IMG/VR virus record: IMGVR_UViG_2645727743_000027
Direction: 5' to 3' (one strand)
Source of the DNA: a virus
Lineage: Duplodnaviria; Heunggongvirae; Uroviricota; Caudoviricetes
Length of the DNA stretch: 7,777 nt
Shown: positions 3,118 through 3,600 of the stretch, one piece after another
Position numbering within the stretch: the first letter of the stretch is position 1
Layout of the letters: every line of letters begins with the position of its first letter
Made by a program: the position numbers and the translations under genes
Notes under the pieces: model-generated
Told to the model about the DNA's origin: nothing
Database searches by the model: none
What the model saw: the letters and a program-made list of their open reading frames with translations, nothing else

Positions 3118-3286
3118 GTTAAGAACGAGTATCGAGATGGCACATAGCCTCGCTCAAATTGGAGTCAGGTTTGTGCCAATACCAGTAGAAACAGACGAAG
3201 AATTTCATACGTTAGCCGCATCCCTTTCACAAAAGCTGGAAATGATGGTGGCGAAAGCAGAAGCAGATGAGAGAGACCAGGTATGA
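3095..3286 (+). CDS. orf63: Small exo-xis region protein in the position of lambda orf63 (63 aa)
   Basis: 63-aa ORF overlapping the 3' end of the previous ORF by 23 nt; size and position match lambda orf63. Confidence 0.6.
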   Translation: MHKASPVELRTSIEMAHSLAQIGVRFVPIPVETDEEFHTLAASLSQKLEMMVAKAEADERDQV

Positions 3287-3366
3287 CAACCACTGAATGC
3301 ATTTTTCTGGCAGCGGGCTTCATATTCTGTGTGCTTATGCTTGCCGACATGGGACTTGTTCAATGA
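3283..3366 (+). CDS. Candidate 27-aa hydrophobic micro-ORF (MTTTECIFLAAGFIFCVLMLADMGLVQ)
   Basis: ATG overlaps the orf63 stop as ATGA, and its own stop overlaps the next ORF's ATG as ATGA (3363-3366), a translational-coupling pattern. Hydrophobic, membrane-peptide-like. No homology claimed. Confidence 0.3.
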   Translation: MTTTECIFLAAGFIFCVLMLADMGLVQ

Positions 3367-3578
3367 CACCTCAGCAGGAAAACGCCCTTCGCAGCATTGC
3401 CCGTCAGGCTAATTCTGAAATCAAAAAAACCAGACAGCAGTTTCCGGATAAAAACGTCGATGACATTTGCCGTAGCGTACTGAAGAAGCACCGCGAAACG
3501 GTAACGCTGATGGGATTCACACCGACTCATTTAAGCCTGGCGATCGGCATGTTAAACGGCGTCTTTAAGGAACGGTGA
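3363..3578 (+). CDS. Small exo-xis region protein, 71 aa from ATG 3363 (frame is open from ATG 3297, 93 aa)
   Basis: Track ORF 3297..3578; I prefer the internal start at 3363 because of the ATGA coupling with the micro-ORF. Occupies the orf61 position of lambda but the size differs, so no symbol is assigned. Confidence 0.5.
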   Translation: MTPQQENALRSIARQANSEIKKTRQQFPDKNVDDICRSVLKKHRETVTLMGFTPTHLSLAIGMLNGVFKER

Positions 3579-3600
3579 ACATGAAAAACAAAATCATCAT

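Follow-up and report, generated by a model that had tools for sequence, protein, structure and literature searches.

The stretch of DNA analysed here (the window; 7,777 nucleotides of IMG/VR virus record IMGVR_UViG_2645727743_000027) matches the leftward early (pL) operon of lambdoid phages at 96–98% identity, the matches including lambda, phage 21, HK630, 933W, VT2-Sakai and many Stx phages. The exo–xis region of this operon, which affects lysogenization and the induction of Stx prophages, has been the subject of work by the Wegrzyn and Donaldson groups, with its genes studied one by one. The features on which the analysis draws are as follows.

1479–2264, plus strand: bet.
2261–2264, plus strand: ATGA overlap of bet and exo (ORFs 1479..2264 and 2261..2941).
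2261–2941, plus strand: exo.
2938–2941, plus strand: ATGA overlap of exo and orf60a; in the lambda annotation, too, exo ends 4 nt past the start of orf60a.
2938–3117, plus strand: orf60a (DUF1317).
3095–3286, plus strand: orf63, 63 aa, homologue of lambda orf63 (DUF1382; Pfam PF07131, E = 3e-31).
3283–3286, plus strand: first ATGA junction, with the orf63 stop TGA (3284–3286) over the micro-ORF ATG (3283–3285).
3283–3366, plus strand: micro-ORF of 27 codons, encoding MTTTECIFLAAGFIFCVLMLADMGLVQ; equivalent to lambda complement(30925..31008).
3363–3366, plus strand: second ATGA junction, with the micro-ORF stop TGA (3364–3366) over the orf61 ATG (3363–3365).
3363–3578, plus strand: orf61 in its 71-residue form, the best-supported reading.
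3297–3578, plus strand: the long ORF of the orf61 region, 93 codons, in frame with the ATG at 3363–3365.
3677–3898, plus strand: orf73 (DksA/TraR zinc finger).
3895–4182, plus strand: ASCH-like gene (weak, sub-threshold Pfam match).

Four-base ATGA overlaps are typical of this operon, in which bet is joined to exo, and exo to orf60a, in this manner. The orf63 protein, the NMR structure of which has been published, is under weak constraint in the population sample described below (dN/dS ~0.8), with several common V-to-A and A-to-T replacements. A second short ORF follows orf61 (window 3575–3670, with an ATG at 3581; 29–31 codons) through a GTGA overlap. It is annotated in some records, in phage 21 as a putative secreted protein, lacks codon periodicity (dN/dS ~0.86) and contains a terminator-like hairpin with a T-run (3601–3615). 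Ribosome profiling is reported in a review to have revealed an ORF of 31 aa in this region; the window differs from ~97% of its relatives at two of its positions, 3588 and 3600.

The original prediction, made from the sequence of the window, held that two consecutive ATGA overlaps enclose a 27-aa hydrophobic ORF between orf63 and orf61, and both overlaps lie exactly where it had placed them (3283–3286 and 3363–3366). The hydrophobic character of the product is also borne out: MTTTECIFLAAGFIFCVLMLADMGLVQ has a GRAVY score of +1.62, and its residues 6–25 form a hydrophobic stretch with a Kyte–Doolittle mean of 2.9 over 15 residues and 2.3 over 19, the best 19-residue hydropathy window of the peptide being +2.3. 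The peptide carries two acidic and no basic residues and, lacking both K and R, is invisible to tryptic proteomics. It is most likely a single membrane-embedded helix, a putative assignment that follows from composition and hydropathy.

Two overlaps in succession had been considered unlikely to be accidental. When the 76 interior bases were shuffled with dinucleotide composition preserved, the bridging frame was open in 42% of trials; multiplied by ~1/3 for the phase and ~1/4 for each flanking A, this gives a rough estimate of ~1% per gene junction for a bridging ORF with both overlaps. Such a figure is suggestive but by itself would not decide the matter, and conservation among relatives provides the stronger evidence. 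Both overlaps are kept in related phages. The first junction reads ATGA in 309 of 309 related loci, with the nearby orf63 positions 3279, 3280 and 3282 variable. The final orf63 codon (GTA, or GCA in some lineages) has 3283 as its third position, and substitutions there would leave the orf63 protein unaltered. The second junction reads ATGA in 287 loci and GTGA in 29.

Translation of the micro-ORF could start from an only moderate Shine–Dalgarno sequence when orf63 lies upstream (−5.6 kcal/mol), whereas that of the orf61 start at 3363 is weak behind the micro-ORF (−3.9 kcal/mol, against −5.6 kcal/mol where the micro-ORF is absent). The weakness of the orf61 site in this arrangement is compatible with dependence on translational coupling.

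Because all known copies of the micro-ORF are at least 90% identical, polymorphism was used in place of cross-species conservation to assess selection. Loci were gathered from IMG/VR and from metagenomes through anchors that exert no selection for the micro-ORF itself: the Orf61 protein of 71 aa and an exact match of 32 nt within orf61. Their projection on the window gave 306 loci with 153 unique haplotypes, in which synonymous and non-synonymous variants, in all and among recurrent variants (those in three or more haplotypes), were distributed as follows.

Micro-ORF frame: 14 synonymous to 15 non-synonymous (expected synonymous fraction 0.28); binomial p = 0.015; dN/dS 0.41; recurrent 10:4, p = 5e-4.
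Micro-ORF bases read in the 93-aa frame: 6:16; p = 0.73; dN/dS 1.22; recurrent 3:7.
Micro-ORF bases read in the third plus-strand frame: 7:21; p = 0.77; dN/dS 1.27; recurrent 1:12.
orf61 (71 aa): 23:27; p = 0.0048; dN/dS 0.45; recurrent 16:7.
orf63: 17:36; p = 0.27; dN/dS 0.80; recurrent 9:11.

Constraint on the micro-ORF, measured over 29 variable sites, is comparable to that on orf61 (0.45) and stronger than that on orf63 (0.8), while the other two plus-strand frames look neutral, with dN/dS of ~1.2–1.6 across the sets. The IMG/VR loci alone gave 14 synonymous against 12 non-synonymous variants in the micro-ORF frame (p = 0.0046, dN/dS 0.33) and the metagenome loci alone 11 against 10 (p = 0.012), the two sets sharing common polymorphisms and so not being fully independent. 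Synonymous variants are also the more widespread, occurring in a mean of 10.2 haplotypes compared with 2.0 for non-synonymous ones (Mann–Whitney p = 0.003). Seven variants were found in at least six loci of the first collection (3291, 3294 twice, 3300, 3315, 3354 and 3363); all seven leave the micro-ORF peptide unchanged, and those within the 93-aa frame alter its amino-acid sequence. A lineage with ~10% DNA divergence (L225) carries five synonymous and two non-synonymous changes in the micro-ORF (A21S and D22G) and keeps the overlap with orf61 as GTGA.

Frameshifts or stops inside the micro-ORF of related phages, which had been named as grounds for abandoning the prediction, are rare. The ~309 loci contain one frameshift, a single-base deletion in a contig of ~1.3× coverage; one loss of the stop codon, by which the orf61 ATG is lost too; and a few changes of Q27 to a stop (CAA to TAA), which shorten the peptide by one residue and leave a TAATG with a 1-nt overlap with the orf61 start. 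No in-frame insertion or deletion was found in the micro-ORF among these loci. The reading of the micro-ORF as coding draws its support from comparative evidence, namely frame-specific purifying selection and the conserved overlaps.

Two other arrangements were found upstream of orf61. In ~45 loci a 185-aa gene, named DNA N6-adenine methyltransferase in RefSeq, stands in place of orf63 (for example, 567–1124 in locus L092). Homology with the orf63-containing loci breaks exactly at the micro-ORF ATG, which the TGA of the methyltransferase again overlaps, and a strong GGGAGG Shine–Dalgarno sequence (−10.3 kcal/mol against the 3′ end of 16S rRNA) lies just upstream of the micro-ORF. Mosaic joints of lambdoid phages are normally found at gene borders, and to judge from its position a module begins, at this joint, with the micro-ORF ATG. 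An overlap of start and stop codons on the same strand, and its conservation among relatives even when a different gene lies upstream, are two marks of an AUGA-type junction that are present here.

In a second arrangement (P0025, at locus L103), found in 100 of 5426 complete E. coli genomes, a 250-aa gene replaces both orf63 and the micro-ORF. The orf61 gene of this variant encodes 71 residues beginning with MT, has its own GAGG and starts after a 7-nt gap behind the upstream stop, without the 22-residue extension of the long ORF. Since orf61 stands without the micro-ORF in these 100 genomes, the micro-ORF is not required for orf61 expression. One called protein (P0075), from a single E. coli contig, joins the micro-ORF in frame to orf61 (MTTTECIFLAAGFIFCVLMLADMGACSVTPQQ...), with another frameshift farther downstream; damage to this copy or an error of sequencing is the probable cause. 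A programmed frameshift leading from the micro-ORF into orf61 was examined and rejected, as inspection by eye found no slippery heptamer before the stop and the sole fusion is this protein with its further frameshifts.

The micro-ORF DNA is present in 3144 of 5426 complete E. coli genomes (58%), which together hold 4259 copies, and the stretch occurs in lambda itself and in the Shiga-toxin phages 933W, Sakai VT2 and Phi24B. A tblastn search of 50,697 phage records with the peptide found it full-length at 90% identity or more in 175 records, and nothing below 90% identity. Public protein collections contain the identical peptide under the name 'hypothetical protein' (UniRef A0A0A2SGE8_ECOLX), with at least 981 contigs encoding it, so some gene callers have detected it. 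RefSeq omits it in the three RefSeq E. coli loci inspected. Searches of Pfam, PHROGs, NCBIfam and PADLOC gave no match for the peptide, and a scan of genome contigs with Orf63 found nothing but lambda DNA that contaminates assemblies from unrelated taxa. The peptide goes unmentioned in the searchable exo–xis literature, and a full-text search for its sequence was empty.

Among the readings that compete with a functional gene, one accepts translation of the micro-ORF and denies its product a role: the frame would do no more than hand ribosomes over from orf63 to orf61, which initiates weakly, and the peptide would be a functionless by-product. The overlaps at both ends of the micro-ORF accord with such a relay, as does the difference between the orf61 Shine–Dalgarno sequence here (−3.9) and where the micro-ORF is absent (−5.6), and so does the fact that orf61 works without the micro-ORF in 100 genomes. 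A relay, however, requires only an open frame in the right phase, yet the peptide sequence is conserved (dN/dS ~0.4, recurrent variants 10:4) and its length is fixed, with no in-frame insertion or deletion in ~309 loci. We consider a pure relay unlikely. Conservation extends to the amino-acid sequence and is not confined to the open frame, so the peptide probably has a membrane function of its own and would not be a mere relay.

A second reading takes the 93-residue form of orf61 (3297–3578), as given in the gene track of the window and in the exo–xis papers, to be the real product, and the 27-codon ORF to be an accidental overlapping frame. This form is the longest ORF, is annotated in many phage records and is aligned across residues 1–93 in PHROG 303. 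The original prediction had instead placed the start of orf61 at 3363, and annotation, natural variation, the neutrality of the extension, Shine–Dalgarno strength and published models all agree with it. RefSeq (PGAP) annotates a 216-nt (71-aa) orf61 from the codon at 3363, in the GTG variants too, leaving 76 bases unannotated after orf63, and the curated phage 21 record starts the gene at the same place; the 3363 start is not new, the correction being already present in the RefSeq annotation. The ATG at 3297 has a poor Shine–Dalgarno match at a spacing of 13 nt. The 22-residue extension evolves neutrally (dN/dS 1.2), with common T-to-A and M-to-V variants that are non-synonymous in it, and so fails as a conserved part of the long form of Orf61 represented in PHROG 303; it is missing from the variant in which a 250-aa gene replaces orf63 and the micro-ORF, and its length differs among phages through polymorphism of the stop at 3294–3296 just upstream. 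Models from AlphaFold and RoseTTAFold agree on a three-helix fold for residues 24–93 and disagree on residues 1–23, for which they offer no consistent placement (PMC8614690). Taken together, these observations make the 93-residue product very improbable.

Several matches to Orf61 were recorded alongside. Residues ~48–65 (window 3506–3560), with the motif GFTPTHLSLAIGMLNG, show a weak match to ankyrin-repeat chains (5y4d, E = 4.7e-4), the sole outcome of a PDB sequence search with Orf61, and the PGAP name 'cell division protein ZapA' corresponds only to a sub-threshold Pfam match (E = 0.017; 15.9 bits, the cut-off being 23.8). Divergent protein matches to Orf61 are mostly frameshifted or truncated copies, one of them (P0037) being a prophage remnant beside host genes, and are uninformative about the micro-ORF.

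The orf61 annotated in lambda (NC_001416, complement 30839..31024; window 3267–3452) begins at the position that corresponds to 3267 and shares its frame with 3297. In lambda this frame owes its openness solely to ACG in place of ACT at 3294, and the annotated gene ends early because of a one-base insertion beside an A-run near 3429, which is genuine in that it is found in all independent lambda-contaminant contigs. From a comparison of the reading frames, laboratory lambda appears to carry a truncated orf61, and its annotated orf61 appears to be a chimera that is out of frame over the micro-ORF, continues through 22 true orf61 codons and ends in a frameshifted tail. DNA nearly identical to lambda also occurs in assemblies labelled Shewanella, Bradyrhizobium, Paenibacillus, Oceanobacillus, Kitasatospora and others (L004–L022); it is almost certainly laboratory lambda DNA contaminating these assemblies.

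Both the lambda orf61 and the 93-residue Orf61 of Stx phages (vb_24B_7c), as studied by the Wegrzyn and Donaldson groups, occupy the same DNA as the micro-ORF, which (lambda 30925..31008) lies wholly inside annotated lambda orf61 but in another reading frame. From their coordinates, the published orf61 deletions probably removed most or all of the micro-ORF as well. According to a review, the additional ORFs that ribosome profiling of lambda revealed in the region are just two, of 7 and 31 aa, with none of 27 aa (PMC8614690). As the micro-ORF lies inside annotated lambda orf61, ribosome footprints on it would probably have been credited to orf61.

The interval could also be a non-coding spacer or a regulatory RNA, with the open frame and the overlaps arising by chance. 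A bridging ORF is indeed expected at ~1% of junctions by chance, and RefSeq leaves the 76 bases unannotated. Against this, the synonymous bias is specific to the micro-ORF frame, ATGA is invariant at a site that is silent for orf63, and the mosaic breakpoint falls exactly at the micro-ORF ATG, at a strong Shine–Dalgarno site. The RNA of 3255–3400 folds less stably than its shuffles (z = +2.2), which makes a structured RNA element unlikely, and we regard the non-coding reading as highly improbable.

A scan for consensus sequences in 2900–3950 detected no promoter-like site on the plus or the minus strand, and a search of the plus strand between 3024 and 3601 detected no terminator-like site. 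A leader peptide or attenuator uORF was rejected as a candidate, given the fold (z = +2.2) and the lack of a terminator-like site on the plus strand in 3024–3601. So was a type I toxin–antitoxin locus: the ORF is locked into the operon at both ends and has no promoter-like site for an antisense RNA.

Least probable of all is the suggestion that an antisense ORF (3350..3165, minus strand, 61 aa), which shares its third positions with the micro-ORF, causes the three-base periodicity. This ORF is open in the window and partly open in the methyltransferase context, and most variants that are synonymous in the micro-ORF are synonymous in it too. Yet it is unconstrained over the two-thirds that overlap orf63 (12 synonymous against 23 non-synonymous variants, among which R-to-W, H-to-R and Y-to-C are common). 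The variant 3348 C>T abolishes its start codon and leaves the micro-ORF peptide unchanged, and 3300 C>T and 3321 C>T, likewise synonymous in the micro-ORF, each turn an M of the antisense product into I. The antisense ORF includes neither 3354 nor 3363, the sites of the two commonest phase-3 variants, the mosaic variant has other sequence in place of its last 39 residues, and the consensus scan gave no promoter-like site on the minus strand.

The best explanation of the 84-nt stretch between orf63 and orf61 is that it is, as we think likely, a real small gene of the pL operon that is under selection and is presumably translated. Ribosomes that finish orf63, or the methyltransferase in the mosaic variant, would terminate at the UGA and restart on the overlapping AUG of the micro-ORF; those that finish the micro-ORF would restart in the same way on the overlapping AUG or GUG of orf61. 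Given the weak Shine–Dalgarno sequence at the orf61 start, we propose that the three products are made in linked amounts. As to what the peptide does, a tentative and rather doubtful suggestion is that, in the inner membrane, it targets a host factor that bears on the lysis–lysogeny decision or the cell cycle, such as the CII-degrading protease complex FtsH/HflKC, in which case the phenotypes of orf61 deletions in lambda and Stx phages would be partly or wholly its own; the data name no target.

If the micro-ORF is a gene, the gene list of the exo–xis region lacks an entry, the N-terminus of orf61 as used for genetics and for modelling of the structure is wrong (in the 93-residue form of Stx phages and in the chimeric 61-residue form of lambda), and the published orf61 deletions are probably double mutants. 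More generally, short genes can be recovered from population polymorphism alone, even when every copy is at least 90% identical.

Three kinds of known system invite comparison. Type I toxin peptides, such as TisB, Ibs, ShoB, DinQ and Hok, resemble the micro-ORF product in being short (~20–50 residues), very hydrophobic and carried on a mobile element. The micro-ORF differs from them in being embedded in an operon by overlaps on both sides rather than standing alone, in encoding no basic residues and in having no promoter-like site for an antisense transcript.

Termination–reinitiation at AUGA or UGAUG couples overlapping genes in the E. coli trp operon and in many phage operons. The micro-ORF shares with these a conserved four-base overlap of start and stop on one strand within one operon, followed by a weak downstream Shine–Dalgarno sequence. 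It departs from them in that two such junctions bracket a reading frame of 27 codons, which would be both acceptor and donor of ribosomes.

The closest likeness in size is to KdpF, AcrZ, MgtS and CydX, enterobacterial single-helix membrane proteins of under 50 aa. Unlike these, the micro-ORF peptide is phage-borne, belongs to an early leftward operon and bears no similarity to the families searched. It has in common with them a similar length, one hydrophobic stretch of ~20 residues, amino-acid conservation and a history of being missed by standard annotation, and the sequence of KdpF likewise contains no basic residue. Three features expected of a small membrane protein gene, a start codon with a plausible route of ribosome binding, a hydrophobic segment and purifying selection, are found in the micro-ORF, which is best described as a putative translationally coupled small membrane protein gene, its coupling suggested by the overlaps and its membrane location by hydropathy.
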